Below are positions 1-64,000 of a stretch of 64,000 nucleotides of DNA, piece by piece. The translations under genes and the position numbers were made by a program. Each line of letters opens with the position of its first letter. The first letter of the stretch is position 1. Source of the DNA: Promethearchaeota archaeon (GTDB taxonomy: Archaea > Asgardarchaeota > Lokiarchaeia > Sigyniarchaeales > SOKP01). The notes under the pieces were generated by a model. It made no database searches and was not told the origin of the DNA. It worked only from the letters and a program-made list of their open reading frames with translations. The stretch spans positions 67,320 to 131,319 of the forward strand of contig JAUWGH010000007.1 of assembly GCA_030606485.1 (NCBI GenBank), in the 5' to 3' direction.

Positions 1-416
1 TATTCTAATGGTTCTAAAAAAAATTCACTAGCACAATGATACTTGAAGATTGTAACTTTTTCAGGAGGTTCTAATATATAAATTTCATTTTTTTCTGTAC
101 CTGGAGCATTTCCTTGTGGTATTGCTCCAGAAAATATAATTAATCCATTTTCAGGAACTTCTTTAAAATTTTTTAACTGCCCTTGCAAACTTGCAATGCT
201 ATCTAAAACATTCTTTCGAGTTAATTTTGATTTGATATTTTGACTTTCAGCAACCTCATTTTTAAGATAATTAGTAACATCAGAAAGTTTTTTATCATGA
301 GGAATATACAAACTTATTAATTCGGTATGAAATCCTTTCTTTTTACGCAAAAAATCTAATAATTTTTTTGTCTTAAATTTTTTTAAGTCTTGACTCTTTT
401 TTGATCTTTCTGACAT
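1..416 (-). CDS. prf1: Peptide chain release factor aRF1 (eRF1 homolog), N-terminal ~138 aa; gene continues beyond the left window edge
   Basis: Absent from the ORF track because it is truncated by the window edge. My translation of the minus strand from the ATG at 416-414 reads MSERSKKSQDLKKFKTKKLLDFLRKKKGFHTELISLYIPHDKK...AESQNIKSKLTRKNVLDSI...IFKYHCASEFFLEPLE. It carries the NIKS stop-codon-recognition motif and the YxCxxxF motif of eRF1/aRF1. Confidence 0.85.
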   Translation of the reverse strand, partial: MSERSKKSQDLKKFKTKKLLDFLRKKKGFHTELISLYIPHDKKLSDVTNYLKNEVAESQNIKSKLTRKNVLDSIASLQGQLKNFKEVPENGLIIFSGAIPQGNAPGTEKNEIYILEPPEKVTIFKYHCASEFFLEPLE

Positions 417-4285: not shown

Positions 4286-4304
4286 TCCTCTGAGTAGTAT
4301 CCAA

Positions 4305-7478
<3,174 letters not shown>

Positions 7479-7493
7479 TGAAAAGTGGATTAT

Positions 7494-11180: not shown

Positions 11181-12575
11181 ATGAAATTTTTTATTGAGGT
11201 TAATTTCAACTGGAAAACAATCTTAGAATTTATATTAGCTAGGGAAAAAGTTTTGAAAGAAAATAATGAATTGAATTATAAATTTGATATTTCACAATTT
11301 TATACAGATTTTTTGAAAAGTCCTAAAATATTTAAAAATAGGGATGCGTTAAATCCAACTTACATTCCAAATAACCTACCTCATCGTGATATACAGATAA
11401 AAAAAATTGCTGAAATTACAGCTTGCCTGTTAAAAGATGGAGTTCCTTTTAATCTTTTAAGTTATGGAAAGACAGGAACAGGAAAAACTTCAGTCATAAG
11501 GTTTGTTAGCAGGAAACTTGATGAAAAATGTAACGAAATTCAAAGAAATAGACCTTGGTGGATTTATAACAATTGTCAGCAAGTTAATACTCCGTATAGA
11601 ATTTTAGCAAATATTTTTAATACTCTTTCCATAGAGGAAAAAATCCCGCCAACAGGTTTGCCAAAAGATATAATTTTTCAAAAGCTTTTAAATTTGTTAG
11701 ATGATGTTGTTGGCAACTCTGTATGTTTTATAGTTTTGGATGAGATCGATATTTTGATTAAAAAAAAAGGTGGAAATGAAATATTATATGATTTAACTAG
11801 ATTAAATGAGAAATATCAATTAAAAAAATGTAGGGTTTGTTTAATTGGAATATCAAATATCTTAAAATTTAAAAGTTTTCTTGATCCTCGAGTTTTGAGT
11901 AGTTTTGGTGGAGAAGAATTAGTTTTTCCCGCTTATAATGCTGAGGAATTGACAGATATTTTACAAGAAAGAGCTGAAATTGCTTTTTTTAAAAACGTGA
12001 TATTGGAAGAGACAATTCCATTATGTGCAGCGCTTGCGGCAAAAGAACATGGAGATGCTAGAAAAGCTCTACAATTACTTAGAAAAGCAGGTGAATTAGC
12101 AGAAAGAAGTCATAATAAAAAGGTGTCATCAAAATTTGTTTATAAAGCTCAAAAATCTTTAGAACAAGATAATACGGAACAATTCATAGAGAGCTTACCA
12201 AAGCAAATTCAATTAGTTTTATGTTCTATTTTTCTAATTACAAAACATCTTCCTAACTTAAAAATAATTACTGGTGATATTTATGATGTTTATCTTGAAA
12301 TTTATGATAAAATTCCTGGTGTTAAGAAATTAACACGAAGGAGAGTAAGTGATTTAATAAATGAGCTGGCATTAGCAGGTATCATAAAAGCTGAAGTAGT
12401 ATCGATGGGTTACTATGGTCGTTCAAAAATCGTAAAATTAGATATGCCATTAGATCAATTATTTAAAATTTTAGAAAAAATTGAAAATATAAAACACATC
12501 CTTAATTATAAACCCATTATTGCACAAAAAGGAAAAGCAAAATTAAATAAAAATACTTTTAAAAAATTATTTTAA
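11181..12575 (+). CDS. cdc6: Cdc6/Orc1 replication initiator (AAA+ with C-terminal winged helix)
   Basis: 464 aa. Contains YIPNNLPHRDIQIKKI (the archaeal Orc1 N-terminal motif), Walker A GKTGTGKTS, Walker B FIVLDEID, sensor region HGDARKALQLLRKAGE and a C-terminal wH. It has ~45 extra N-terminal residues. Confidence 0.9.
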   Translation: MKFFIEVNFNWKTILEFILAREKVLKENNELNYKFDISQFYTDFLKSPKIFKNRDALNPTYIPNNLPHRDIQIKKIAEITACLLKDGVPFNLLSYGKTGTGKTSVIRFVSRKLDEKCNEIQRNRPWWIYNNCQQVNTPYRILANIFNTLSIEEKIPPTGLPKDIIFQKLLNLLDDVVGNSVCFIVLDEIDILIKKKGGNEILYDLTRLNEKYQLKKCRVCLIGISNILKFKSFLDPRVLSSFGGEELVFPAYNAEELTDILQERAEIAFFKNVILEETIPLCAALAAKEHGDARKALQLLRKAGELAERSHNKKVSSKFVYKAQKSLEQDNTEQFIESLPKQIQLVLCSIFLITKHLPNLKIITGDIYDVYLEIYDKIPGVKKLTRRRVSDLINELALAGIIKAEVVSMGYYGRSKIVKLDMPLDQLFKILEKIENIKHILNYKPIIAQKGKAKLNKNTFKKLF

Positions 12576-13246
12576 ATAAATTCCCAATTATCAAGTTCTT
12601 CAATAATATTCGTTAATATCTTTTCAGTTTTTGATTCATTTTCTGATTTTAAAATTATAAATAATTTTACTAAATGTTTACATAACTTTTTTTGTCTACT
12701 CTTGCGAGTTAAATAATCATGGCAATCATGAATGATTTTTTTTTTATTTAATTCAACTTCAAATTTATAACGCTTTTCTTTAGTACCACTAACCTCTCCT
12801 CTTATTATTCCTTGATCAATATTAAGTTCGTGAAATGTAAAAGAATTTTTAGAAACTGATACTGACCTATTTAGAGTACTTTCATCTGATAATTCTTTTA
12901 AAAGCATATTAAAAGAACCTTTTCTTTCTTTAGAAAGATCATTCAGACTAATTGCTTTTAAACTAATATCTTCTAGCGCATTTTTCACTTTTTCATTCTC
13001 TTTTTTTTGCAAAGTAATGAAATCTTCTCGTAATTCTTTAGAAAGTAAAATTTTACCACTTTTTTCAACTAAAAAACCTTTTTTTATTAATTCATTGACT
13101 AATTGAACTGATTTATTTGGTTTTAAAAGAAATAATTCAAAAGAAATATAATAAATTAGCTCTTCCCTCCCAATTGAAGGAAGATCTAAGCTCCTCCAAA
13201 TATATATTATCAATTCCTTATGATTTGAAGGTGTTTTATTAATCAT
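12572..13246 (-). CDS. Hypothetical protein, N-terminal wH-like region plus C-terminal SWIM-like zinc-finger motif
   Basis: 224 aa. The C-terminal IHDCHDYLTRKSRQKKLCKHLVKL resembles a SWIM finger (CxC...CxH), with His replacing one ligand. The gene is sandwiched between cdc6 (4-nt convergent overlap) and the PolD small subunit. Confidence 0.55.
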   Translation of the reverse strand: MINKTPSNHKELIIYIWRSLDLPSIGREELIYYISFELFLLKPNKSVQLVNELIKKGFLVEKSGKILLSKELREDFITLQKKENEKVKNALEDISLKAISLNDLSKERKGSFNMLLKELSDESTLNRSVSVSKNSFTFHELNIDQGIIRGEVSGTKEKRYKFEVELNKKKIIHDCHDYLTRKSRQKKLCKHLVKLFIILKSENESKTEKILTNIIEELDNWEFI

Positions 13247-13279
13247 TTTTTTTACAAAAATTAGTTATTATTTAATAGA

Positions 13280-15148
13280 TTAACTATTTAAATTGATTTC
13301 TGTTATTTTCCTTTTATCTAGTTCAACAATACCAATCCTACCTGGAGTTGGATTGATTCCGAAAGATTCCATATATTTAGTTTTATTTTGAAAGCATCCA
13401 CTATTTACTAATAAAATATTACGATAATTCCCAAAACCACTTATATGAATATGACCGGTATGAAAAATATCAGGAATAGTATCAATTACTAACCAGTCTT
13501 TTCTCATTGGAGCAATTAGATTTTTTCCTCCGTATGAGGGCGCTAAATGTCTAAATCTCAATATTTCTTTCATTGATTTTGTGGGTTGTTCGTGAGATAA
13601 ACCTGGAATTGACATATTAAGATCAATTAAACTGTCACCATGAAATGATAATGTTTTTACGCCTTCAGTTTGAATTAAAACTGGATCTCCCACACAAATA
13701 ACACCCAAATCAAACAAACCATCAATATATTTTTTTGGAACAGCGGGTTGAGGCAATGCCTTATGCACGGGCTCATGAGATCCAGGTGAATAAAATATCT
13801 TTATATAAGATGGGATCTCTCTTAATAACTCTGCTGCTTTCTCATATTGTTTATAAATATCTGAAATTTCTAAATTTTCTTTTTGATTGGGATATATCCC
13901 AATTCCATCAATTAAATCTCCTGCTATCATAATATATTTAATTTTACCTGCAAAATCTCTTGTTTTTTGGTTTCCAAACTTTCCATTCAAAAATTTAATG
14001 AATCTTTTCCATAATTTTGGAATAAATTTTTTACTTCCAATATGCAAATCGGAAATTAATGCAATAGATAAAGGAGTATCAGAATATGCTGGGTTAAAAG
14101 AAACTGGTATATCTATTTCTGTAAGATTTCGAACAAAAATTATTCCAGGTCTATTATTTTCCCCAGGTCTATAAAAACCTTCGACGTAAATCATTATATC
14201 ATTTACTAAATAATTCGTTTTTTGGAACAACTCATAATTAATTGAGTCATTTTTTACTAAAAGATTTATTCGTCCAGTTAAATCCTCAATTTGTATCATT
14301 TTATTGTCAGATGATGTTGTTTTAATGCTTATGATTAATCCTATTACTTTTACCTCGCCTACTTGATTTAACCTTAATATATTTGCAATATTATTTGCCG
14401 CTGAAATATTTTCTCGTTTTCTCATTAATTTTTTAAATGAATAAAATCTGTCTTTAAAAAGTTCCATAAAATCTTCGTATGATCCCGAAGTATGCATCTT
14501 TCCGGTTGGATCTTTTAATATCTCATAGTTTGCATTATATTCTTTAGCTAACGGACAATATCTTTTTATACTAGAAGAAATTTGATTTATTTTTATTTTA
14601 TCAATTTCAACCTTACTATCTTGGCTATTATCAATTTTGGAAGAATTTTGAATTTTCGTCTCGTAAGCTGATTCAACATCATAATTTTCAGAAAATAAAT
14701 CGTCTTGATAAATTTCGGGAGGTGAAATTTTCTCGTTAATTTCATTATCTTCTTGCTCACGAATGGTTTCAGATTCAGCTTTAATGTCGTCACTTTCTTG
14801 TTTTTTAATTAAACCTTCTGAAATGTCTGAAATTTTCTCAATTTCAACAACTACATTTTTAGTTTTTATGATATTTTTAAATTTTTGATATTGATTAAGA
14901 TAATTCGTAAAAATGTTTGGTCTTTTATTATTTGGAATCTTTAGTATCTCATCTACTGTAATATGATTGTTAAAAGAAGGTAAGAAACTTGTTTCTTTTA
15001 TTAATATATCAATATTTATATTTGGATCATCTGACTCCAAAATTAAAGTAAATAGTTCTGGTGATATGTTAATACCAGATTTTAATAATTTCTTAATTAA
15101 AAACTTTCTGATCTCTATTTGATTATAACGTGAGTGATTTCTTTCCAT
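13280..15148 (-). CDS. polB: DNA polymerase II (PolD) small subunit DP1
   Basis: 622 aa. The C-terminal calcineurin-like phosphoesterase motifs are ALISDLHIGSK, MIAGDLIDGIGIYP, YSPGSHEP and FHTGHIH. They are preceded by an OB-fold region and an acidic linker, as in DP1. Confidence 0.9.
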   Translation of the reverse strand: MERNHSRYNQIEIRKFLIKKLLKSGINISPELFTLILESDDPNINIDILIKETSFLPSFNNHITVDEILKIPNNKRPNIFTNYLNQYQKFKNIIKTKNVVVEIEKISDISEGLIKKQESDDIKAESETIREQEDNEINEKISPPEIYQDDLFSENYDVESAYETKIQNSSKIDNSQDSKVEIDKIKINQISSSIKRYCPLAKEYNANYEILKDPTGKMHTSGSYEDFMELFKDRFYSFKKLMRKRENISAANNIANILRLNQVGEVKVIGLIISIKTTSSDNKMIQIEDLTGRINLLVKNDSINYELFQKTNYLVNDIMIYVEGFYRPGENNRPGIIFVRNLTEIDIPVSFNPAYSDTPLSIALISDLHIGSKKFIPKLWKRFIKFLNGKFGNQKTRDFAGKIKYIMIAGDLIDGIGIYPNQKENLEISDIYKQYEKAAELLREIPSYIKIFYSPGSHEPVHKALPQPAVPKKYIDGLFDLGVICVGDPVLIQTEGVKTLSFHGDSLIDLNMSIPGLSHEQPTKSMKEILRFRHLAPSYGGKNLIAPMRKDWLVIDTIPDIFHTGHIHISGFGNYRNILLVNSGCFQNKTKYMESFGINPTPGRIGIVELDKRKITEINLNS

Positions 15149-15482
15149 GCCCTATTAGCAAATTCCATAAATTTTTTAAATATTAACTTATAAAATCCAA
15201 CAATTTTAATTCTATTTGAATATTTTTTATATTTTTTTAATAACCTCTTAAGATATAAACAAAAGAAAATAATAAATGAAAACTCCATTTTACTTTATTA
15301 ATTTTTACAATTAATCAAAGTAATATAATAAATTTTTTATATTTTTATAAAAAATAATAGCACTGTATATCGCTTTAACAGATATTGAATATCTCCTTAA
15401 TAATAGGAATAAAATATAATATGGTACTATATAGTTTTACATTACAGATTTTACAACTATAAAAAAGAATATTTGGTTTAGT

Positions 15483-18400
15483 ATGGTAGTATTAAGTAAA
15501 CGGCAAGAAGAATATTTTAATGAGCTAGAACAACGAATAAATCAAATTTATGATATTGCAAAAGAAGCGAAAAGTAGGGGGTTAGATCCATCAACAGATG
15601 TAGAGTCTCCTATTGCTAAGGATCTTGCTGGGAGAGTAGAAACTTTAATTGGACCAAAAGGAATTGCTAAACGCATTAGAGAGTTAAAAGCGAATGGATT
15701 AAATGAAGATGAAATTGTATTTGAAATTGCAACAGAAATATTAGATAAAAAATTAGGTAACATTGAATCAAAGGATGAAAGAGTTGATAGAGCAATTAGA
15801 GCAGCATTAGCGATTAAAACACAAGGTGTTGTTTCAGCTCCATTGGAAGGAATTTCAAGAATTCTTATCCGAAAAGACAATTTAGGTAACTCTTATTTAT
15901 CTTTGTACTTTGCTGGACCTATACGAGCCGCTGGTGGAACAACGACTGCATTATGCATATTACTTGCTGATATGGTAAGAAAAAAAATAAATTTAGCTAA
16001 ATATAAGGCTACTGAGGGAGAAATTGGGCGAATGGTGGAAGAAATAAAACTTTATAATCGTATTTTAAATTTGCAATATCCTGCATCTAATGAGGAAATT
16101 AGATTTGCAGTTAAAAATTTACCTGTAGAAATTAATGGAGACCCAACAGAAAAAGAAGAGGTATCAGCTTTTCGGGATCTCCCTCGAATAGATACTAATA
16201 GAATTAGGGGTGGTGCATGTTTAGTTTTAAATGACGGAATCCTTTTAAAAAAAAGCAAACTTCAAAAGATTACCAAGGAAATGAATTTAAGTGGATGGGA
16301 ATGGCTGGATGAGTTAATAAAAGTATCTGAATCAGGTGAATCGAAATTAAATAAAGAGAATATAATATCTAAGCATCAAAAAATTGTGAAAAATGAAAAA
16401 TTCATTGCTGATATTATCGCTGGAAGACCAGTCTTTAGTTATCCTTCAGAAACTGGAGGTCATCGAATTCGCTACGGTAGGTCACGCAATAGTGGATTGG
16501 CTGCATGCGGGATGCATCCAGTAACAATGACTCTTTTAGATAATTTTGTAGCCATTGGCACTCAAGTTAAAATAGAAAGACCCGGAAAAAGTGCCTCTAT
16601 TGTTCCAGTTTCTAGTATTGAAACACCAATTGTTCTGTTAAAAAATGGAAACGTAGTAAAGATAAAAACCAAATCTATGGCTAATAAATTATACAAAGAT
16701 ATTGAAAAAATTCTCTTTTTGGGAGATATTCTTATTAGTTTTGGAGAATTTGTTGAAAATAATCATATTTTAGTCCCATCTGGATATTGTGAAGAATGGT
16801 GGGCTCTAGATTTAAAGAATTCATTGGAAAAGAATAAAGAAAAAATTAAAAAATTTCCCATTGAGGAAGAGAGATTAAAATCTTATCATACGGACTTCTT
16901 TAAAAAGATACCTTCTGCGGAAGAAGCAATTGCTATTAGTAAAATTCTAAATATTCCACTTCATCCGGTTTATACTGATTTTTGGAATAACTTAACATTA
17001 AAAGAAATCATCTCATTAAGAAAGTTCTTTATAGATAATTATAAAAATGGGATTTTAACTTTGGATATAATTCCAGAAATTAAATCTATCCTAGAGAAAG
17101 CTTTTATCCCGCATAGAATTATTGACAATAAAATTGTATTTAGCAAGGCAAAAAATAAAATCTATGAGGAAATTTTCGGTTTAAAATCTAAAAAAGATAT
17201 TGATCTCTCTAAAATATCAAATATCTTTGACTTATTCAATTCATTATCTGCCATGAAAATCAAAAATATGTGTTACCATTATATAGGATCCCGGATGGGG
17301 CGACCAGAAAAATCTGAAGAAAAGAAAATGAAACCTCCAATTCATGTATTATTTCCCTTAAGTAAAAAAGTAGGCAGCTCTCGTACTATTCAAAAAGCAA
17401 TTGAATTGGGTAAGATCAAAATTGATATTTGCAGAAAAAAATGCCCTAATTGCAATACGATTACTATTTTTAATAAATGCAACACATGTGGAACTCACAC
17501 AAATTTCCAAAAATTTTGCCCTAATTGCAAGAAATTCGTTGATGCAAAAAATGTATCTTGTCCATATTGTAACGGAATGCTGAAAAACTCAACTCCAGCA
17601 TTATTCAATTTTAAAAAATATGTTAATTCAATTATGAAAGAGATAAATCATTCTCTTCCCAATGTCAAGGGTGTATATGGGCTTACAAATTTAATGAAAG
17701 TTGCAGAACCACTCCAAAAAGGAATCTTGAGAGCATTACACGGAGTTTTTGTATATAAAGATGGCACAATTCGTTATGATGCAACTGATCTCCCATTGAC
17801 ACACTTCAAACCAAATGAAATTGGTACTTCTATAAAGAAACTAATTGAATTTGGTTATTTATATGACATTTATGGGAAACCTCTTGAAAACAATGAACAA
17901 ATTCTTGAATTAAAAGTACAAGATATTCTTTTATCTGAACATAGTGCAAAATATTTTGTAAAAGTTGCCAATTTTCTTGATGATGAATTGAAAACTTTCT
18001 ATAATATAAATCCATTTTATAATATTAAGAATACATCTGATTTAATAGGCCAAATCTTTATAGGCTTAGCACCCCATACTTCCGCAGGAATAATTGGGAG
18101 AGCTATTGGCTTTTCATCAGCTAGAGCTATTTACGCACACCCTTTCTGGCATGCTGCGAAACGTCGAAATTGTGATGGGGATGAAGATGGATTGATGCTA
18201 TTAATGGATTGTTTACTTAATTTTTCACTGCATTATCTTCCAAGTAAAATTGGAGGAAAAATGGATGAACCACTTGTTATATCAGTAAGGCTTGACCCAA
18301 ATGAAATTGATTCAGAGGCCCATAACATTGATACTCTTTATCAATATCCCTTAGAATTTTATGAAAGTACAGAGAAATATTTGGATCCTATTGAAATAAT

Positions 18401-18926
18401 AGATAAAATGGAATTGGAAAGCACACGTCTCGGATCTGAACTCCAATTTGAACAACTTGGATTCACTCATCCCACTGAATCAATTAATGCTGGCCCTCTT
18501 ACTACGGCTTATAAATTATATGAAACAATAGATGAAAAAATACATGCTCAATTATATTTGGCAAAAATCATAAAGTCTGTAAATGTCCAAGATGTTGCCA
18601 GAAGAATTTTAAAAACTCATTTTACTCCTGACATTCTTGGAAACCTGCGTTCATTCACCAATCAAAACTTTAGGTGTGTTAAATGTAATGAAAAATATAG
18701 AACCCCACCTTTATACACAGGAGGAATATGTAAGTGTGGTGGAAAAATCATCTTAACAGTGAATCGTGGTGGGATCGAAAAATATATACCCCGGTCATTA
18801 AAGATAATAAAAGAATTTGATTTAGATAATTATACTAAACAAAGAATGGAATTAATTGAGTCATACGTAAAATCCGTAGCTAACAATCCAAAAATAAGGC
18901 AACATCATTTATCAGACTTTTTCTAA
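15483..18926 (+). CDS. polC: DNA polymerase II (PolD) large subunit DP2
   Basis: 1147 aa. It has the N-terminal YFNELEQRINQIYDIAKEAKSRGLDPS pattern, several CxxC zinc clusters (CPNCNT...CNTCG, CPNCKK...CPYCNG, CVKCNE...CKCGG) and the catalytic-core block NCDGDEDG. Its length argues against an intein. Confidence 0.95.
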   Translation: MVVLSKRQEEYFNELEQRINQIYDIAKEAKSRGLDPSTDVESPIAKDLAGRVETLIGPKGIAKRIRELKANGLNEDEIVFEIATEILDKKLGNIESKDERVDRAIRAALAIKTQGVVSAPLEGISRILIRKDNLGNSYLSLYFAGPIRAAGGTTTALCILLADMVRKKINLAKYKATEGEIGRMVEEIKLYNRILNLQYPASNEEIRFAVKNLPVEINGDPTEKEEVSAFRDLPRIDTNRIRGGACLVLNDGILLKKSKLQKITKEMNLSGWEWLDELIKVSESGESKLNKENIISKHQKIVKNEKFIADIIAGRPVFSYPSETGGHRIRYGRSRNSGLAACGMHPVTMTLLDNFVAIGTQVKIERPGKSASIVPVSSIETPIVLLKNGNVVKIKTKSMANKLYKDIEKILFLGDILISFGEFVENNHILVPSGYCEEWWALDLKNSLEKNKEKIKKFPIEEERLKSYHTDFFKKIPSAEEAIAISKILNIPLHPVYTDFWNNLTLKEIISLRKFFIDNYKNGILTLDIIPEIKSILEKAFIPHRIIDNKIVFSKAKNKIYEEIFGLKSKKDIDLSKISNIFDLFNSLSAMKIKNMCYHYIGSRMGRPEKSEEKKMKPPIHVLFPLSKKVGSSRTIQKAIELGKIKIDICRKKCPNCNTITIFNKCNTCGTHTNFQKFCPNCKKFVDAKNVSCPYCNGMLKNSTPALFNFKKYVNSIMKEINHSLPNVKGVYGLTNLMKVAEPLQKGILRALHGVFVYKDGTIRYDATDLPLTHFKPNEIGTSIKKLIEFGYLYDIYGKPLENNEQILELKVQDILLSEHSAKYFVKVANFLDDELKTFYNINPFYNIKNTSDLIGQIFIGLAPHTSAGIIGRAIGFSSARAIYAHPFWHAAKRRNCDGDEDGLMLLMDCLLNFSLHYLPSKIGGKMDEPLVISVRLDPNEIDSEAHNIDTLYQYPLEFYESTEKYLDPIEIIDKMELESTRLGSELQFEQLGFTHPTESINAGPLTTAYKLYETIDEKIHAQLYLAKIIKSVNVQDVARRILKTHFTPDILGNLRSFTNQNFRCVKCNEKYRTPPLYTGGICKCGGKIILTVNRGGIEKYIPRSLKIIKEFDLDNYTKQRMELIESYVKSVANNPKIRQHHLSDFF

Positions 18927-22925: not shown

Positions 22926-23022
22926 AGCCTCTGGAGGGAATTGAACCCTCGACCTTCTGATTACGACTTCTGTGCTTTAATACATATACATATCAGACGC
23001 TATACCACTAGGCTACAGAGGC
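22926..23022 (-). tRNA. tRNA-Thr (anticodon CGU preferred) with a 25-nt intron at position 32/33 (22967-22991)
   Basis: Read on the minus strand. Acceptor GCCUCUG/CAGAGGC, T arm GAGGG-UUCAAUU-CCCUC, anticodon stem UCUGA/UCAGA, variable AGGUC, discriminator U. 32 nt lie between the stem halves. Removing 22967-22991 leaves the loop UUCGUAA. The D stem is weak (GCCU/UAGC). The alternative canonical 37/38 reading gives UGU, which is also Thr. Confidence 0.8.
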
Positions 23023-60126: not shown

Positions 60127-60747
60127 TTGCCGATATTAACACCAGAGGATGAGATAGATTTAGCAAAATTTGAAGTAGAACTCGTAAAGAATTGGAATAA
60201 AATGATTGGTTCTCAAAAGAGTGTCACAGCAACGCATATGAAATTATCTGACCTTATAATCAAAGAAAATTCTGCAAGAGAAGTTTTTTTAAGAACTGCT
60301 AGAGATGTGTATAAACAGATGAAAGTACTAGCAAGAGAAAAAATGTCTAATATCGATGAGAACGATGGGAAAATAATTCAAAAAATAATTCATGATAATG
60401 AAACAATATATGAAAATAATAAAAAATTTCTTAACGCCATAAAAGATCTAGGATTACAAAGAGAATATCTACATAAAGAATTTCAAGAATTAACTGAAGC
60501 ATTAAAGGATGTATCTTCAAAAAGAAAAGCAGTTGTTCATAAAGCTTTAAAAATCGAAATATCAAAGAATAAATTAATTGAAGGAGAGAAACTAGAAATG
60601 TTGGACCAAGAATTTAAAAACATACAAAAGGAGTTTGACAGATCTAAAGGACGTTATTTGAAAAAAGTTGAACATATTGAATCTACGAGGAATGAAGTTA
60701 ATTCTTTATGGAATAAATTAAAAGATTCTACTATGGGATTTGACTGA
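60127..60747 (+). CDS. Hypothetical all-helical/coiled-coil protein
   Basis: 206 aa with heptad-like K/E/L-rich sequence throughout and no recognisable family. TTG start. Confidence 0.5.
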   Translation: MPILTPEDEIDLAKFEVELVKNWNKMIGSQKSVTATHMKLSDLIIKENSAREVFLRTARDVYKQMKVLAREKMSNIDENDGKIIQKIIHDNETIYENNKKFLNAIKDLGLQREYLHKEFQELTEALKDVSSKRKAVVHKALKIEISKNKLIEGEKLEMLDQEFKNIQKEFDRSKGRYLKKVEHIESTRNEVNSLWNKLKDSTMGFD

Positions 60748-60861: not shown

Positions 60862-61278
60862 ATGATAAAAATAGCCGAAGAATTTAATTCAATGTTAGCT
60901 GCAACCCGGAAAGCACCACTAGATGAAAAACTCAAAGGACTTGCAGATATCATTGAAAGTATAATGCAAATTGTGTTAAAAATTCCTAATTTGGTAGATC
61001 AAAGCTTAACTATTATAAATTCAAGAATTTCTTCAATTGAAGGAAGGCTCACTTCACTGGAAACAAGAACTGCTCAAGGAGCTACGGCTGTATCAGCAGG
61101 AGCTGGAAGTCTGCCTCGCTCCCCAGGAGCTCCACCACCTCCGCCAGGAGCGCCTCCACCACCTCCGGGACGTCCACCCGCTGGTCCTGAACCAGCGAGT
61201 GCAGCTAATCCAGTTTCTTTAAGAGGGGCCATCATGGGCGAATTGAAGGAATTATTCTCAAAAAGAAAAAAGATATAA
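60862..61278 (+). CDS. Hypothetical protein: N-terminal coiled coil, A/G/S linker, (GAPPPPP)x2 polyproline tract, C-terminal WH2-like amphipathic helix with a basic tail
   Basis: 138 aa. Residues 85-111 read PRSPGAPPPPPGAPPPPPGRPPAGPEP (nt 61114-61194). Residues 117-138 read PVSLRGAIMGELKELFSKRKKI (nt 61210-61275). This is a local GC spike in an AT-rich genome, and the frame is supported by clean helical sequence on both sides. Confidence 0.6.
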   Translation: MIKIAEEFNSMLAATRKAPLDEKLKGLADIIESIMQIVLKIPNLVDQSLTIINSRISSIEGRLTSLETRTAQGATAVSAGAGSLPRSPGAPPPPPGAPPPPPGRPPAGPEPASAANPVSLRGAIMGELKELFSKRKKI

Positions 61279-61558: not shown

Positions 61559-63334
61559 ATGCAGAATATGACTGAAAATACAAAAACAGTAAAAGTAATA
61601 CATGATTCTCAGAGGAAAGTTCTAGAAATTATATCCTTATTACGAGTGATGAATAATTACTATGGGAAAAAGAAGGATATTCAAAAGAAAATGAAACCAA
61701 TTGTTTTAAAAAGATTTAAAAAGAGTATAAAAGAATTAGAAGAAAATTCCGATTGGTTATTTTCTGTTCCGAGCACACTGGACTCTTTAAATTTAGAATT
61801 TATGAAAAAAAATGATGCTTTTCGATTTCCCGATGCAATACATTTATTTGAGGCATGGATGAATCTTGGGATGGATGCTGTTTTTCCACGAGTTGCATTT
61901 AACTTTGATTTTCCAGGTGTATTACCAAATGAAAAAAAAAGGTCTGTATTTCAGTTTATTTATAATTTTTCTCGTGGATTTGGTTTTCCAATCATTTTTA
62001 ATCCCACATTTTATGAACATGATATTGGTTTATTGAGATTTCTTAATCCATTATTAAAATGGGGCTATACTGTTTTTCACAAAGTAAATCAAGCGAATTC
62101 TCTTGTTGAAAGACGTTTTAATTTAAATAGACATCATCCTGGAGAATTTGAATTTGTTATAATTTCAGAATTTAAAGATGGATTTAAAGGAGTTGACACA
62201 CTTTTACATGGATATAAAATAAAAAAACCAAAATTAATCGGAAATTATGATAATTTAAATCAAGCCTTAGAAGATATTGTATTTTCTTATTCAATAGGAG
62301 ATCATGCAATGAGTATTTTGAAATATAAAGGGCAAAGATTTAAGGAAATCCCCCTTATCGATAATCATTTTATTAAAAAAAAATATGATATTGATTTTTA
62401 CTCTTATATTAAAAAATTAATCTCGACTAATAACGCTATTACTCAAAGAATTAAAGAATTAAGAAAGGAAATCACACAAAAATTAAAGGAATTTTCACTT
62501 ATTGATAAAATAAGATTTAGATTAAGGAAAGGTAAAGTTATTCCTTTATCTAAAGACTTACAAAAAGTTAAAGATATTGAGTTTAAAAAAAATATCTTAG
62601 ATAAAATTAGACAAAAATTATGGACTACTCCATTATATACTCATACAGTTCATTCACCTAAACAATATAAGCTCAGTTATACTCAAGAGGAAAATGATTT
62701 AGATGAATTAGGACAAGAAGAATCTGATTCAATCTTGTTAAAATTAGTAAGGAAATATGGAAAAAAATATAAAATCGAGTTCAATGAAGAAAAAATCATC
62801 AAAAAGCTTGAGGAATTAAGAGATGATATGGCAAAGATGTGGTTATATTTTAAAGAAAGACATCTTAATTATGCAAAAAGAAAAATGATGAAAATTACTA
62901 CAATGTCTGTTAATGATCCTAATTATAGAGAAAAAATATTAAAATTAGTAGATGAATTGATACCAATTATAACAATTCATGAGATTTTTATACGACCTTT
63001 ATCAGATTCTGTTTATCCAGAATCTATACCACAAACTCAAAAAATGTGGTCTTATCTCGCAACATTCTTAAGTTCTAAGTATAATCCAATGGGTGTTAGC
63101 TTAATTAAAACCTTCAATCGAATAGCATACCATAGATGGGCTTATTTTTTCAAAAAGAAAAATATAAAATTTAATCATTATTTCGATTATTTTATAAAAT
63201 TACCAATTTGGGAAAATATCCCAGATGAAATTATGAATTGTTTTAAATCTTATCCAAATGAAAAGATTATTTTCGTCAAAAACCCAAAACAATCAATAAG
63301 AAATAGAGTTTCCAAATTAAAAGAGAAATTTTAA
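61559..63334 (+). CDS. Hypothetical protein (591 aa)
   Basis: A long uninterrupted ORF. The N-terminal half is aromatic-rich (FNFDFPGVLP, FGFPIIFNPTFYEHD), the middle is K/E-rich and helical, and the C-terminal region is hydrophobic and aromatic. No family recognised. Confidence 0.55.
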   Translation: MQNMTENTKTVKVIHDSQRKVLEIISLLRVMNNYYGKKKDIQKKMKPIVLKRFKKSIKELEENSDWLFSVPSTLDSLNLEFMKKNDAFRFPDAIHLFEAWMNLGMDAVFPRVAFNFDFPGVLPNEKKRSVFQFIYNFSRGFGFPIIFNPTFYEHDIGLLRFLNPLLKWGYTVFHKVNQANSLVERRFNLNRHHPGEFEFVIISEFKDGFKGVDTLLHGYKIKKPKLIGNYDNLNQALEDIVFSYSIGDHAMSILKYKGQRFKEIPLIDNHFIKKKYDIDFYSYIKKLISTNNAITQRIKELRKEITQKLKEFSLIDKIRFRLRKGKVIPLSKDLQKVKDIEFKKNILDKIRQKLWTTPLYTHTVHSPKQYKLSYTQEENDLDELGQEESDSILLKLVRKYGKKYKIEFNEEKIIKKLEELRDDMAKMWLYFKERHLNYAKRKMMKITTMSVNDPNYREKILKLVDELIPIITIHEIFIRPLSDSVYPESIPQTQKMWSYLATFLSSKYNPMGVSLIKTFNRIAYHRWAYFFKKKNIKFNHYFDYFIKLPIWENIPDEIMNCFKSYPNEKIIFVKNPKQSIRNRVSKLKEKF

Positions 63335-63338
63335 AAGA

Positions 63339-64000
63339 TTACCACTCTAGGAATCCTGGGTCATCAAAAACCTCTTCAAGCGTTTTATCTTTTGCTAATT
63401 TTTCTTCTACTTCTATTTCTTCCTCAAGATCAACGCCAATATCTTCTTGTTTTATTTTTTCACGTAATTCTCTTTCTAATAATTTATAGTTTGCTGCTTC
63501 ATCTCTCCATTTATTAGATTCTTCTAGTAATTCTTCTTCTCCTGTTGAAATATATTCTTTAGATAATTCTGAGGCTTTCATTTTTGTAATATCTGATAGA
63601 AGCGAATAAGTTAAAGCTAATTCACTCCAATTTTTCTCTTTTTCATGTTCTTTTATATTTCCTTTTAAACGATGATATTCTTGATCTTTAAAATATAAAT
63701 CAATAAATGACCCATAAAAATCTACAGCAGCTTCAATAGAACGGGCTAAAACCTCTTTTTGTAATCCGCAAGTTCCACATTTAACTTCAACCAAATTGAC
63801 AATTTTATCCTTTAATTCTGTTTTTTTTAATTTTCCGCCACAAATAGAGCAGTTTTTTACATTTTCTCCGTTTATATCATATAAATCATTTGCTGAGCGT
63901 AAATTTGCATCCCATTCTAGCCCACAATCAATACATTTTATAGAATATGCAATTAATTTGATCTTCTTCTCTATTTTAACTGATTTAGCCCCGCACTCAG
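63339..64000 (-). CDS. Multi-zinc-ribbon protein with helical acidic C-terminus; 5' end lies beyond the right window edge
   Basis: The track starts this ORF at 63794 (TTG), but the frame stays open to the window edge. My translation upstream reads ..ECGAKSVKIEKKIKLIAYSIKCIDCGLEWDANLRSANDLYDINGENVKNCSICGGKLKKTELKDKIVNLVEVKCGTCGLQ.. That gives at least three complete CxxC pairs, plus a lone Cys at the window edge that may belong to a fourth. Confidence 0.55.
   Translation of the reverse strand, partial: ECGAKSVKIEKKIKLIAYSIKCIDCGLEWDANLRSANDLYDINGENVKNCSICGGKLKKTELKDKIVNLVEVKCGTCGLQKEVLARSIEAAVDFYGSFIDLYFKDQEYHRLKGNIKEHEKEKNWSELALTYSLLSDITKMKASELSKEYISTGEEELLEESNKWRDEAANYKLLERELREKIKQEDIGVDLEEEIEVEEKLAKDKTLEEVFDDPGFLEW

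Follow-up and report, generated by a model that had tools for sequence, protein, structure and literature searches.

The gene family described here may bear on how the small GTPases and the actin cytoskeleton of Asgard archaea are wired. The closest described proteins are the Asgard RagA/Arf-like GTPases, of which about 100 clusters, drawn from Loki, Thor, Odin and Promethearchaeota, carry a C-terminal tail that the Asgard Arf papers we examined do not describe (hereafter GTPase fusions; they are annotated as "ADP-ribosylation factor-like protein"). Pfam confirms that they are GTPases (Gtr1_RagA, 1e-24; Arf, 6e-24), and the structure closest to their G domain is LokiRagO (8yl2), followed by RagA/Gtr1 and Arl/Arf. 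LokiRagO as solved lacks the tail, and our literature search found no paper on it.

On the cytoskeletal side, the Ena/VASP and WASP/WAVE proteins resemble the protein studied here in combining an oligomerising coiled coil, predicted in our case, with a short conserved helix and units of (G/A)PPPPP, and the WH2 motif (PF02205; the V region of WASP, WAVE and WIP) is likewise a short amphipathic helix placed right after a Pro-rich tract. [quoted passage not shown]

An Asgard gene family in a conserved syntenic block

We analysed a 64,000-nt stretch of DNA (the window); all positions are given within it, and residue numbers refer to the 138-aa protein encoded by the target gene (Table 1). The reading frame reported in the preliminary description was recovered at the same coordinates, with exactly the sequence quoted there. 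It is a real gene, encoding a strongly conserved small protein that is restricted to Asgard archaea: sequence searches returned 50 full-length homologs (E 1e-12 to 6e-35) and 131 matches in species-representative genomes, and a search of 1.84 billion proteins gave 88 cluster representatives with E<=1e-3. The best 80 of the matches in species-representative Asgard genomes, which include the cultured Promethearchaeum syntrophicum MK-D1, are all syntenic orthologs (80/80), and counts out of 80 below refer to this set. This distribution of homologs also confirms the Asgard origin that had been suspected from the look of the remaining genome content.

The family is new to annotation and to the literature. 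Neither Pfam nor NCBIfam gave a significant match for the protein, the best match in a fold search with its AF2 model was no better than E = 4, and its peptide was absent from all searchable papers in our literature search. Two further reading frames overlap the gene, at 61037-61222 on the plus strand and at 61074-61235 on the minus strand (poly-Gly); they are by-products of its CCN-rich stretch.

Table 1. Features of the target gene and of two of its neighbours in the 64,000-nt window
Feature	Position	Strand	Basis or remark
Conserved 206-aa all-helical protein	60127..60747	+	Immediately upstream of the target gene in 74/80 loci
Target gene, Asgard-specific family without annotation	60862..61278	+	Complete ORF, 138 aa + stop, ATG start
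Short N-terminal helix, residues 2-16, conserved EEFxxFL...TRKAP	60865..60909	+	AF2
Long helix, residues 20-77, heptad-patterned, predicted coiled-coil stalk	60919..61092	+	AF2
Disordered Pro/Gly/Ala-rich linker, residues 78-116	61093..61209	+	AF2 pLDDT <50
Tandem repeat, 21 nt x2, encoding two GAPPPPP units	61119..61160	+	TRF: period 21, 2.0 copies, 86% match
C-terminal basic amphipathic helix PVSLRGAIMGELKELFSKRKKI, residues 117-138	61210..61275	+	Conservation; AF2 helix 117-137
Elf1-like zinc-ribbon protein with acidic C-terminal tail	63339..63794	-	Pfam Zn_ribbon_Elf1

The gene sits in an extremely syntenic housekeeping block that runs from Pelota through a radical SAM protein, the 206-aa protein and the target gene (sometimes followed by a gene for a 550-590-aa protein) to the Elf1-like gene, four unknown genes and an AAA ATPase. 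The Elf1-like gene lies about 0.5-2.7 kb from the target gene in 72/80 loci and still adjoins it after a rearrangement in the MK-D1 lineage; its copy in the window falls below the Pfam Zn_ribbon_Elf1 threshold (22.7 vs 29.8 bits), and the L001 ortholog matches at 4e-19. The 206-aa protein upstream gave nothing informative in Pfam, NCBIfam or PDB. We considered that it might be a degenerate N-terminal or GTPase part of a split gene and rejected the idea, as hhalign finds it unrelated to the target protein or the GTPase fusions (0.1-0.3%). Neighbours being housekeeping or unannotated, the window and the 80 loci hold no functional hint for the target gene; there is no actin, profilin, GTPase or roadblock gene inside the 64-kb window.

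Relation to the tails of RagA/Arf-like GTPases

The preliminary description divided the protein into a coiled coil, a tract rich in Pro and an amphipathic basic helix at the C-terminus; this division is correct, and the three-part layout is kept in all 80 orthologs. A single-chain AF2 model built on a 34-sequence alignment has three helices (Table 1), the last with pLDDT 70-79. In the family alignment, E7, F8 and P19 at the N-terminus are near-invariant, and so is P42 in the stalk helix, where M35, L39, I41 and D46 are invariant. Mean pLDDT in blocks of ten residues is 86-94 over residues 21-70 of the stalk and 59 for residues 71-80. The only PDB matches of the family profile are oligomeric coiled coils, namely the SadA stalk (E 3e-6), reovirus sigma-1 and Lpp; from this weak sequence similarity we infer that residues 2-77 form an oligomerising coiled coil.

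Profile comparison places the protein, at the level of sequence, as a homolog and free-standing copy of the tail found at the C-terminus of RagA/Arf-like GTPases from Asgard archaea. The alignment of the two families by hhalign (98.8% probability, E 7e-17, 109 columns) runs from residue 5 of the target protein to its C-terminus and covers the last ~120 residues of the fusions, pairing the N-terminal helix of the target with a conserved KFSKYLK motif that lies at the end of the GTPase region or just after it. In both families a helix is followed by a coiled coil, then by a disordered linker and the terminal helix, and AF2 models of the target and of one fusion agree in showing a helix, a disordered linker and the terminal helix. 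The two families also share the terminal motif R-x-x-phi-phi-x-E-L-K-x-L-F-x-K-[KR], found by a strict pattern in 74 of 106 fusions, with the E and the L invariant. Standalone gene and fusion paralogs occur in the same phyla.

The target lacks both the GTPase domain and the N-terminal helical domain: neither Pfam nor AF2 detects a G domain (G1 GxxxxGKT, G3 DxxGQ, G4 HKxD) in it, so it is not a GTPase. The linker of the standalone protein is Pro-rich in every case, whereas that of most fusions contains 2-6% Pro, and the standalone gene occupies a fixed syntenic position, whereas the fusions occur in varied contexts. Beside several fusions lie genes for an Rce1-like protease, BacA, PAP2, inositol-1-P synthase or kinases. 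The Rce1-like protease was considered as a conserved partner of the tail and dropped, being adjacent at one locus and not at three others.

Baculovirus P10 and polyhedron envelope protein (PEP) offer an analogy for the layout. Both are small proteins that begin with a coiled coil, are rich in Pro in the middle and end in a basic C-terminus, the same three parts as in the target. P10 builds fibrillar structures, and a self-assembling structural protein of this kind would use the terminal helix for higher-order self-association. Weak Pfam matches point the same way: Baculo_PEP_C in 28/34 members (best 4.7e-5) and NPV_P10 in 9/34 (best 2e-3). The Baculo_PEP_C matches, however, reach about 21 bits where the gathering score is 38 and do not extend beyond the coiled coil (residues 23-71), and the tail has nothing in common with P10; we rejected membership of these families (PF04513, PF05531), whose scores are sub-threshold and confined to the coiled coil. 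Since P10 and PEP are insect-virus proteins, the likeness is an analogy at most, and the fact that soluble GTPases carry this tail too favours docking over filament building. We regard a P10-like filament protein as very improbable.

The terminal helix and its linker

Linker and helix evolve in sharply different ways. Across the 80 orthologs the linker measures 44-71 aa, with 29-42% Pro and about 80% P+G+A+S, and its pN/pS against close relatives is 0.7-1.4, so that composition is conserved and sequence is not. The native linker peptide of the target is SPGAPPPPPGAPPPPPGRPP, and two XPPPPP units (X = G/A/L/S) lie inside the low-confidence segment of the model. Such [GALS]PPPPP units number at least one in 53/80 orthologs and at least two in 10/80, a PPP run is absent in 6/80, and the units are mostly missing from paralogs that retain the terminal helix. 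The GC spike of the tract noted in the preliminary description is real (59-70% GC at 61050-61250, vs about 25% in the background) and is fully explained by its Pro/Gly/Ala codons, which keep the A/T-ending synonyms preferred by the genome (CCA/CCT in 13/16 Pro, GGA in 5/6 Gly). A collagen-like triple helix following a trimeric coil was ruled out from the Gly spacing of the tract, which is 7, 7, 5 and not every third residue.

The helix, by contrast, has a pN/pS of 0-0.04, indicating very strong purifying selection. Synonymous changes are locally in excess in the DNA that encodes it, and gene conversion between the standalone gene and its fusion paralogs is one candidate cause. Its consensus LRGAIMGELKxLFxKR is almost invariant in the 80 orthologs, its core R-x-x-[IL]-[MQ]-x-E-L-K-x-[LI]-F-x-[KR]-[KR] is present in 80/80 of them, in distant members and in the GTPase-fusion tails, and all 34 sequences of the alignment share L120, R121, G122, I124, M125, E127, L128, K129, L131, F132 and R135. 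By hand placement, the conserved positions cover roughly 220 degrees of the helical wheel, R121, E127 and K129 included. The C-terminal motif and the Pro tract singled out in the preliminary description are thus both conserved among orthologs, the helix being essentially invariant and the linker Pro-rich in 80/80. A near-invariant helix behind a linker free to vary is a pattern typical of linear docking motifs, and we read the sequence data as suggesting one here. Consensus patterns for three further linear motifs, RPEL, MIM1 (the Vps4-MIT ligand) and the PIP-box (the PCNA ligand), matched 0/108 members and were set aside.

The preliminary description likened the helix to a WH2 motif and the tract before it to a profilin-binding site. 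The protein would then be an actin-assembly factor: its PPPPP units would recruit profilin-actin, its helix would bind the hydrophobic cleft of actin in the way of WH2, RPEL or WASP C-region helices, and its coil would cluster these sites, for elongation or nucleation in the manner of Ena/VASP or WASP. Several observations speak in its favour, among them the two canonical XPPPPP units of the window protein, the presence of the family wherever Lokiactin-type cytoskeletons occur, and a stretch of 9-10 residues (RGAIMGELK) that aligns with RGALLDQIR of WASP-type WH2 helices. The WH2 assignment, however, found no support in the tests that we ran, and the likeness is no better than chance. The phi-phi-x-x-phi pattern of a WH2 helix is present, as I124, M125 and L128; hhalign against WH2 peptides gave 20% probability over only 10 columns (RGAIMGELKE against RGALLDQIRQ), and so short a match is within chance. 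Pfam WH2 does not match the window protein at E<=10, and it is outside the 25 most frequently matched of 56 families across 34 members; a PDB search with a profile of the C-terminus only returned no WH2 or VCA chain at E<=10. Scored with the WH2 HMM, the family has a median of 0.1 bit against about 45 for real WH2 peptides, and 15% to 22% of shuffled or unrelated C-termini score as high as the family does. All profile comparisons with WH2 are thus at background. The LKK[TV] element that defines WH2, expected 4-7 residues after the helix, is missing: its general form (L[KR][KRH][TV], in the last 40 residues) occurs in 0/108 members, as does the ELM LIG_Actin_WH2 pattern, and the hydrophobic stripe of the target instead runs on as a longer helix ending LFxKRK.

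Pfam detects no EVH1/WH1, VASP_tetra, GBD, F-actin-binding site or other domain of actin regulators, and the domain order is the reverse of that in Ena/VASP, the coiled coil of the target lying N-terminal to the Pro tract and that of VASP C-terminal to it. In a divergent subclade (P0046-P0049, P0052) the helix is followed by a poly-Asp tail that recalls the central and acidic regions of WASP VCA; this tail has no Trp, and an acidic or Trp-containing tail of the WASP/WAVE VCA type is found in 0/80 orthologs. No cytoskeletal gene lies inside the window or the conserved block. As for profilin, two points favour the reading: nucleation machineries that would use it through polyproline are yet to be found in Asgard archaea (PMC9433394), and Thor and Heimdall profilins bind polyproline weakly. 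Against it, the polyproline of VASP was reportedly not bound by the profilins of Loki and Odin (PMC8410842). Profilin binding by the tract is unsupported, with XPPPPP units in only 53/80 orthologs and polyproline lost from most paralogs that keep the helix. We consider an actin-assembly factor distinctly unlikely.

In a bolder version of the same idea, the family would supply Asgard archaea with the native polyproline ligand that they are missing and with a factor that delivers actin monomers. Since RagA/Arf-like GTPases have this module as their tail, it would also be a prokaryotic forerunner of GTPase-controlled factors for actin nucleation or elongation. If true, it would carry the logic of WASP/WAVE, formins and Ena/VASP, in which a small-GTPase switch acts through a polyproline arm and a cleft-binding helix, over to Lokiactin; we give it only a slender chance.

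Alternatively, the terminal helix could be a membrane-targeting sequence, with the coil multiplying avidity and the linker acting as a spacer, and it would then anchor the GTPase fusions as well. The analogues are the C-terminal helices of MinD and FtsA and the linker-plus-polybasic anchors in the hypervariable region of Ras/Rho, where a nucleotide-binding protein likewise ends in a flexible linker and a basic amphipathic segment. The helix of the target stands at the extreme C-terminus after a flexible linker, has a net charge of +3 to +4 and a HeliQuest-type lipid-discrimination factor D of 1.3-1.7, which equals or exceeds the value of about 1.34 commonly taken to indicate lipid binding; it is attached to small GTPases without the N-terminal amphipathic helix of true Arfs, and several fusion genes adjoin the membrane and lipid enzymes named above, though these neighbours are not conserved between loci. 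Yet its hydrophobicity <H> of 0.17-0.22 is well below the 0.40-0.45 of the MinD/FtsA membrane-targeting helices, and its moment muH of 0.33-0.38 is at best comparable, lying at the low end of their 0.30-0.61. Lipid-binding helices tend to conserve periodicity and not residue identity. In the Asgard helix, which has no lipidation motif, paralogs with only about 30% identity all keep the acidic E127 and specific basic residues, an unusual pattern for a helix that binds lipid. A membrane tether is, in our view, an unlikely though credible alternative.

A proposed docking helix on a predicted oligomeric stalk

The reading that we favour, tentatively and with a probability of about 0.45, is that the target protein is a free-standing GTPase tail, an oligomeric stalk presenting a docking helix on flexible arms to a partner shared with the GTPase tails. 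The N-terminal helices (residues 2-77) would form the oligomerising coiled-coil stalk, and the disordered Pro/Gly-rich spacer of 44-71 residues would keep the last segment away from it. The docking peptide would be the invariant basic amphipathic helix of 16-18 residues at the C-terminus, whose I124/M125/L128/L131/F132 stripe may insert into a groove of a conserved partner, while R121, E127 and K129 would form salt bridges on its flanks. Stalk, spacer and docking helix together would give multivalent presentation: the oligomer could serve as an adaptor or tether with several copies of the helix on flexible arms.

This helix also terminates about 100 clusters of GTPases, so the receptor of the standalone protein is most likely that of the GTPase tails. 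It may act as a scaffold for these tails or compete with them, and it may co-oligomerise with them through the homologous stalk. We infer that the helix docks to a protein and not to lipid, that its receptor is shared with the GTPase tails and that the standalone protein co-assembles with them; docking to a protein is consistent with a terminal helix that is only moderately hydrophobic and amphipathic by comparison with MinD and FtsA.

The terminal helix offers a new and easily testable interaction motif, and the linker offers a second handle: no native (G/A)PPPPP tracts seen to date in genomes of the Loki type are cleaner than those of the target orthologs, and their PPPPP peptides are the obvious material for re-examining whether Loki profilins lack polyproline binding. 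The receptor of the helix would show to what these GTPases dock, be it the membrane, the cytoskeleton or partners of the roadblock/longin type. Were the receptor actin, the consequences for eukaryogenesis would be major; were it a lipid or another protein, it would still fill an undescribed part of Asgard GTPase systems.

A conserved Asgard protein and its genomic setting

The 138-aa protein of the preliminary description is the exact translation of its ORF. Using a 34-sequence alignment, AF2 predicts a short helix (residues 2-16), a long helix (residues 20-77; 10-residue block means of 86-94 over 21-70), a disordered Pro-rich linker (residues 78-116, pLDDT <50) and a terminal helix (residues 117-137, pLDDT 70-79). 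The coiled coil is similar to oligomeric stalks, and a fold search with the model returned nothing informative. Both GAPPPPP units reported earlier are present, encoded by a tandem repeat (table below). The GC spike once read as a sign of selection on the peptide is real (59-70% at the tract vs ~25% in the background) but merely reflects the Pro/Gly/Ala codons, which keep the genome's A/T-ending synonyms; small overlapping ORFs on both strands are by-products of this CCN-rich stretch.

Word-indexed searching across 5.8 billion proteins turned up 50 homologs that match over the full length; none is annotated, and every one comes from a Loki, Thor or Promethearchaeia MAG. HMMER, run exhaustively over 1.84 billion cluster representatives, found 88 matches at E<=1e-3, and scanning a single genome per GTDB species found 131. 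The best 80 of these 131 are all orthologs of 133-161 aa, from Promethearchaeota/Promethearchaeia, Thor-, Hermod-, Hod- and Odinarchaeota; cultured Promethearchaeum syntrophicum MK-D1 is among the sources. The window itself is near-identical to MAG 2R3_4 (96%) and close to ABR01 (90%). No Pfam or NCBIfam family matches the protein and its peptide is absent from the searchable literature. The gene is real, conserved and Asgard-specific. Two records labelled otherwise, locus L075 (DATKTW010000134.1, 'Candidatus Nanopelagicaceae bacterium'), which bears the complete Asgard syntenic block, and the GTPase-fusion protein P0159 ('Desulfobacterales bacterium'), are probably mis-binned Asgard contigs.

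That block is exceptionally stable, among the most stable, and runs CutA, two unannotated genes, radical SAM, GNAT, Pelota, radical SAM, a 206-aa helical protein and the target, then sometimes a 550-590-aa protein, an Elf1-like gene on the opposite strand, four unknown genes and an AAA ATPase. In 74/80 loci the gene directly upstream of the target is the 206-aa one, whose product is related neither to the target nor to the GTPase fusions described below, and in 72/80 the Elf1-like gene lies within ~0.5-2.7 kb; a rearrangement in the MK-D1 lineage removed the former and left the latter adjacent. These neighbors are uninformative as to function. The 591-aa ORF is a recurrent presence/absence gene within the otherwise rigid block (41/80 orthologous loci), and its ortholog's sole match is a weak NCBIfam anti-phage phospholipase (E 2.6e-4, far below cut-off). 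At ~80 residues, the Elf1 core is far shorter than the Elf1-like protein, whose extension ends ...EEVFDDPGFLEW. Downstream of the Elf1-like gene, immediately outside the window on its right, is a further conserved series (L001:9424-16407 in another Asgard locus, with equivalents in most loci). It comprises four Pfam-less genes of ~366, 320, 380 and 435 aa, the 320-aa one with a double zinc ribbon, then an AAA ATPase of 406 aa, whose best NCBIfam matches, to IteA-like and CdvC-like families, fall far short of the cut-offs, and a gene of 346 aa; each occurs in 43-64 of the 80 loci.

The window as a whole is given over to core information processing (23S rRNA, Orc1/Cdc6, PolD, RpoB, NrdD, RtcB, archease, NAC, TFE, Pelota), with neither 16S nor 5S genes detected in its 64 kb. 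Since Orc1/Cdc6 adjoins the PolD subunits, a replication origin may lie nearby.

Features of the window (nucleotide positions) and predicted layout of the GTPase fusion P0083 (residues, AF2)
Feature	Position	Strand	Remarks
23S rRNA gene	4298-7479		
Orc1/Cdc6 and both DNA polymerase D subunits	11181-18926		adjoining
tRNA	22926-23022	-	97 nt; Rfam, 54 bits; missed by ARAGORN; probably contains an intron
Target ORF	60862-61278	+	138 aa
Tandem repeat, 21 nt x2	61119-61160		encodes both GAPPPPP units
591-aa ORF	61559-63334		between target and Elf1-like gene; no family match
Elf1-like zinc-ribbon protein	63339-63794	-	long acidic coiled C-terminal extension
P0083 helical N-terminal domain	1-112		
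P0083 G domain	121-300		
P0083 long helix	313-357		
P0083 disordered linker	358-406		
P0083 terminal helix	408-425		

Constraint on the terminal helix and linker

The terminal helix reads [VIMQ]-[ST]-LRGAIMGELKxLF in all 80 of the best 80 species-level orthologs. L120, R121, G122, I124, M125, E127, L128, K129, L131, F132 and R135 are invariant in 34 aligned sequences, and a core R-x-x-[IL]-[MQ]-x-E-L-K-x-[LI]-F-x-[KR]-[KR] is kept in a set of 90 distinct C-termini that are more distant. In comparisons with the three closest relatives, the helix's 22 codons show 10-13 synonymous and only 0-2 nonsynonymous differences (pN/pS 0-0.04), whereas the linker, at pN/pS 0.7-1.4, is almost neutral at the residue level. 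Linker makeup is nonetheless constant in 80/80 orthologs (44-71 aa, 29-42% Pro, P+G+A+S ~80%). Conservation covers the helix and a Pro-rich linker but not the canonical repeats: no more than 53/80 orthologs contain a [GALS]PPPPP unit, 10/80 contain at least two, and six lack any PPP run; in distant standalone members the Pro content is often 7-20%, with runs absent. Two endings seen elsewhere, a run of 8-11 Asp/Glu after the helix in a divergent standalone subclade (P0046-P0049, P0052) and ...KKRRAWENE in another (P0013, P0023, P0035), are found in none of the 80 syntenic orthologs.

The helix had been compared to WH2, and its likeness to WASP GRGALLDQIRQG is real but short and does not hold up: 0/108 members carry an LKK[TV]-type element and 0/108 match a WH2 pattern. 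Pfam WH2 does not match the window protein at E<=10 and is not among the 25 families most frequently matched by 34 members, and a C-terminus-only profile found no WH2 or VCA chain in the PDB at E<=10. Alignment by hhalign to eight WH2 peptides reached 20% probability over 10 columns, and a WH2 HMM gave a family median of 0.1 bit vs ~45 for WH2 peptides, a score equalled by 15-22% of shuffled or unrelated Asgard C-termini. The WH2 assignment is rejected, and RPEL, MIM1 and PIP-box patterns fail as well.

An actin-assembly factor, as first proposed, is improbable. The window protein does contain a profilin-type XPPPPP tract, and Asgard nucleation machineries relying on profilin-polyproline contacts still await discovery (PMC9433394), but the tract is not universal among orthologs, no cytoskeletal gene lies in the gene's surroundings and the window holds no actin gene. 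Profilins of Loki and Odin reportedly showed no binding to VASP polyproline, and those of Heimdall and Thor weak polyproline binding (PMC8410842). More remote still is a P10-like self-assembling protein, a reading that draws on Pfam matches below threshold and confined to the coiled coil. The target belongs to none of four families: WH2, Ena/VASP, WASP and P10.

A tail shared with RagA/Arf-like GTPases

Six longer matches in the exhaustive HMMER search carry the whole module (helix, coiled coil, linker and terminal helix) at the C-terminus of a small GTPase (Pfam Gtr1_RagA down to 1e-24, Arf down to 6e-24). With one of them, P0083, as query, we recovered ~100 clusters of proteins 400-430 aa long, which carry the annotation 'ADP-ribosylation factor-like protein' and come from Loki, Thor, Odin and Promethearchaeota. 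By a strict pattern the terminal motif ends 74 of 106 fusions examined, with relaxed variants in most others; its E and L are invariant among the 106, and most linkers hold only 2-6% Pro. In a profile-profile comparison, the standalone protein proved homologous over its whole length to the last ~120 fusion residues (98.8% probability, E 7e-17, 109 columns), the match starting in a conserved KFSKYLK motif at or just past the end of the GTPase region. The solved structure nearest P0083 is LokiRagO (8yl2, 'homo-tetrameric RagA-like small GTPase from Asgard Lokiarchaeota'), and next come RagA/Gtr1 and Arl/Arf proteins; LokiRagO aligns no further than the first post-G-domain helix and has no such tail. 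Two published Asgard Arf studies do not describe the tail, and one of them took off N- and C-terminal extensions ahead of classification. Judged by sequence homology, the RagA/Arf-like GTPase family is the nearest known relative, of which the target is a G-domain-less derivative; standalone family and tail module are undescribed so far.

The P0083 gene (L086:4483-6335) overlaps by 4 nt a downstream gene for an Rce1-like (CAAX protease/CPBP, PF02517) intramembrane protease; eukaryotic Rce1 acts in processing of small-GTPase C-termini. The pairing is missing at three other fusion loci, which adjoin BacA with inositol-phosphate enzymes, PAP2 or an M20 peptidase instead. In another protein, P0132 (335 aa), the N-terminal region is a winged helix (HTH_24/FaeA-like), fused to no more than the module's first half, the conserved helix and coiled coil, without Pro linker or terminal helix. 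Within the target gene, the ~50 nt encoding the terminal helix (61213-61262; cf. L006:10352-10401, L007 and L008 in other Asgard genomes) show a local synonymous excess: 13 synonymous differences in 22 codons (pS ~0.9) vs 95-96%-identical relatives, against pS 0-0.11 in the rest of the gene and merely scattered differences in the aligned 3' flank. Since the SLRGAIMGELK codons match P0083 better (29/33 nt) than L006 or L007 (24/33), the excess suggests gene conversion between paralogous helix-coding segments.

A proposed docking peptide on flexible arms

By our own helical-wheel placement of the 34-sequence invariants, the conserved face of the terminal helix spans ~220 degrees, invariant charged residues included. 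Together with the constrained spacer and the coiled coil, such a face is characteristic of a docking peptide, and we favor, at roughly 45%, a multivalent adaptor sharing the receptor of the RagA/Arf-like GTPase tails. An oligomeric coiled coil, of whatever order, would form the base, and a disordered spacer of constrained composition would connect it to the very strongly constrained helix, borne as a docking peptide on flexible arms. The helix could instead anchor the protein in a membrane, as its position, charge and attachment to GTPases might suggest; its hydrophobicity is, however, below that of reference membrane-targeting sequences, its amphipathicity falls near the bottom of their range, and it contains an invariant Glu, making such a tether unlikely, if less so than an actin-assembly role. 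The Glu and lower hydrophobicity argue for a protein groove rather than lipid as the partner of the putative adaptor. Were that receptor actin or profilin, interest would be high, because a link between a GTPase tail and the cytoskeleton would then exist in eukaryotes' archaeal relatives.
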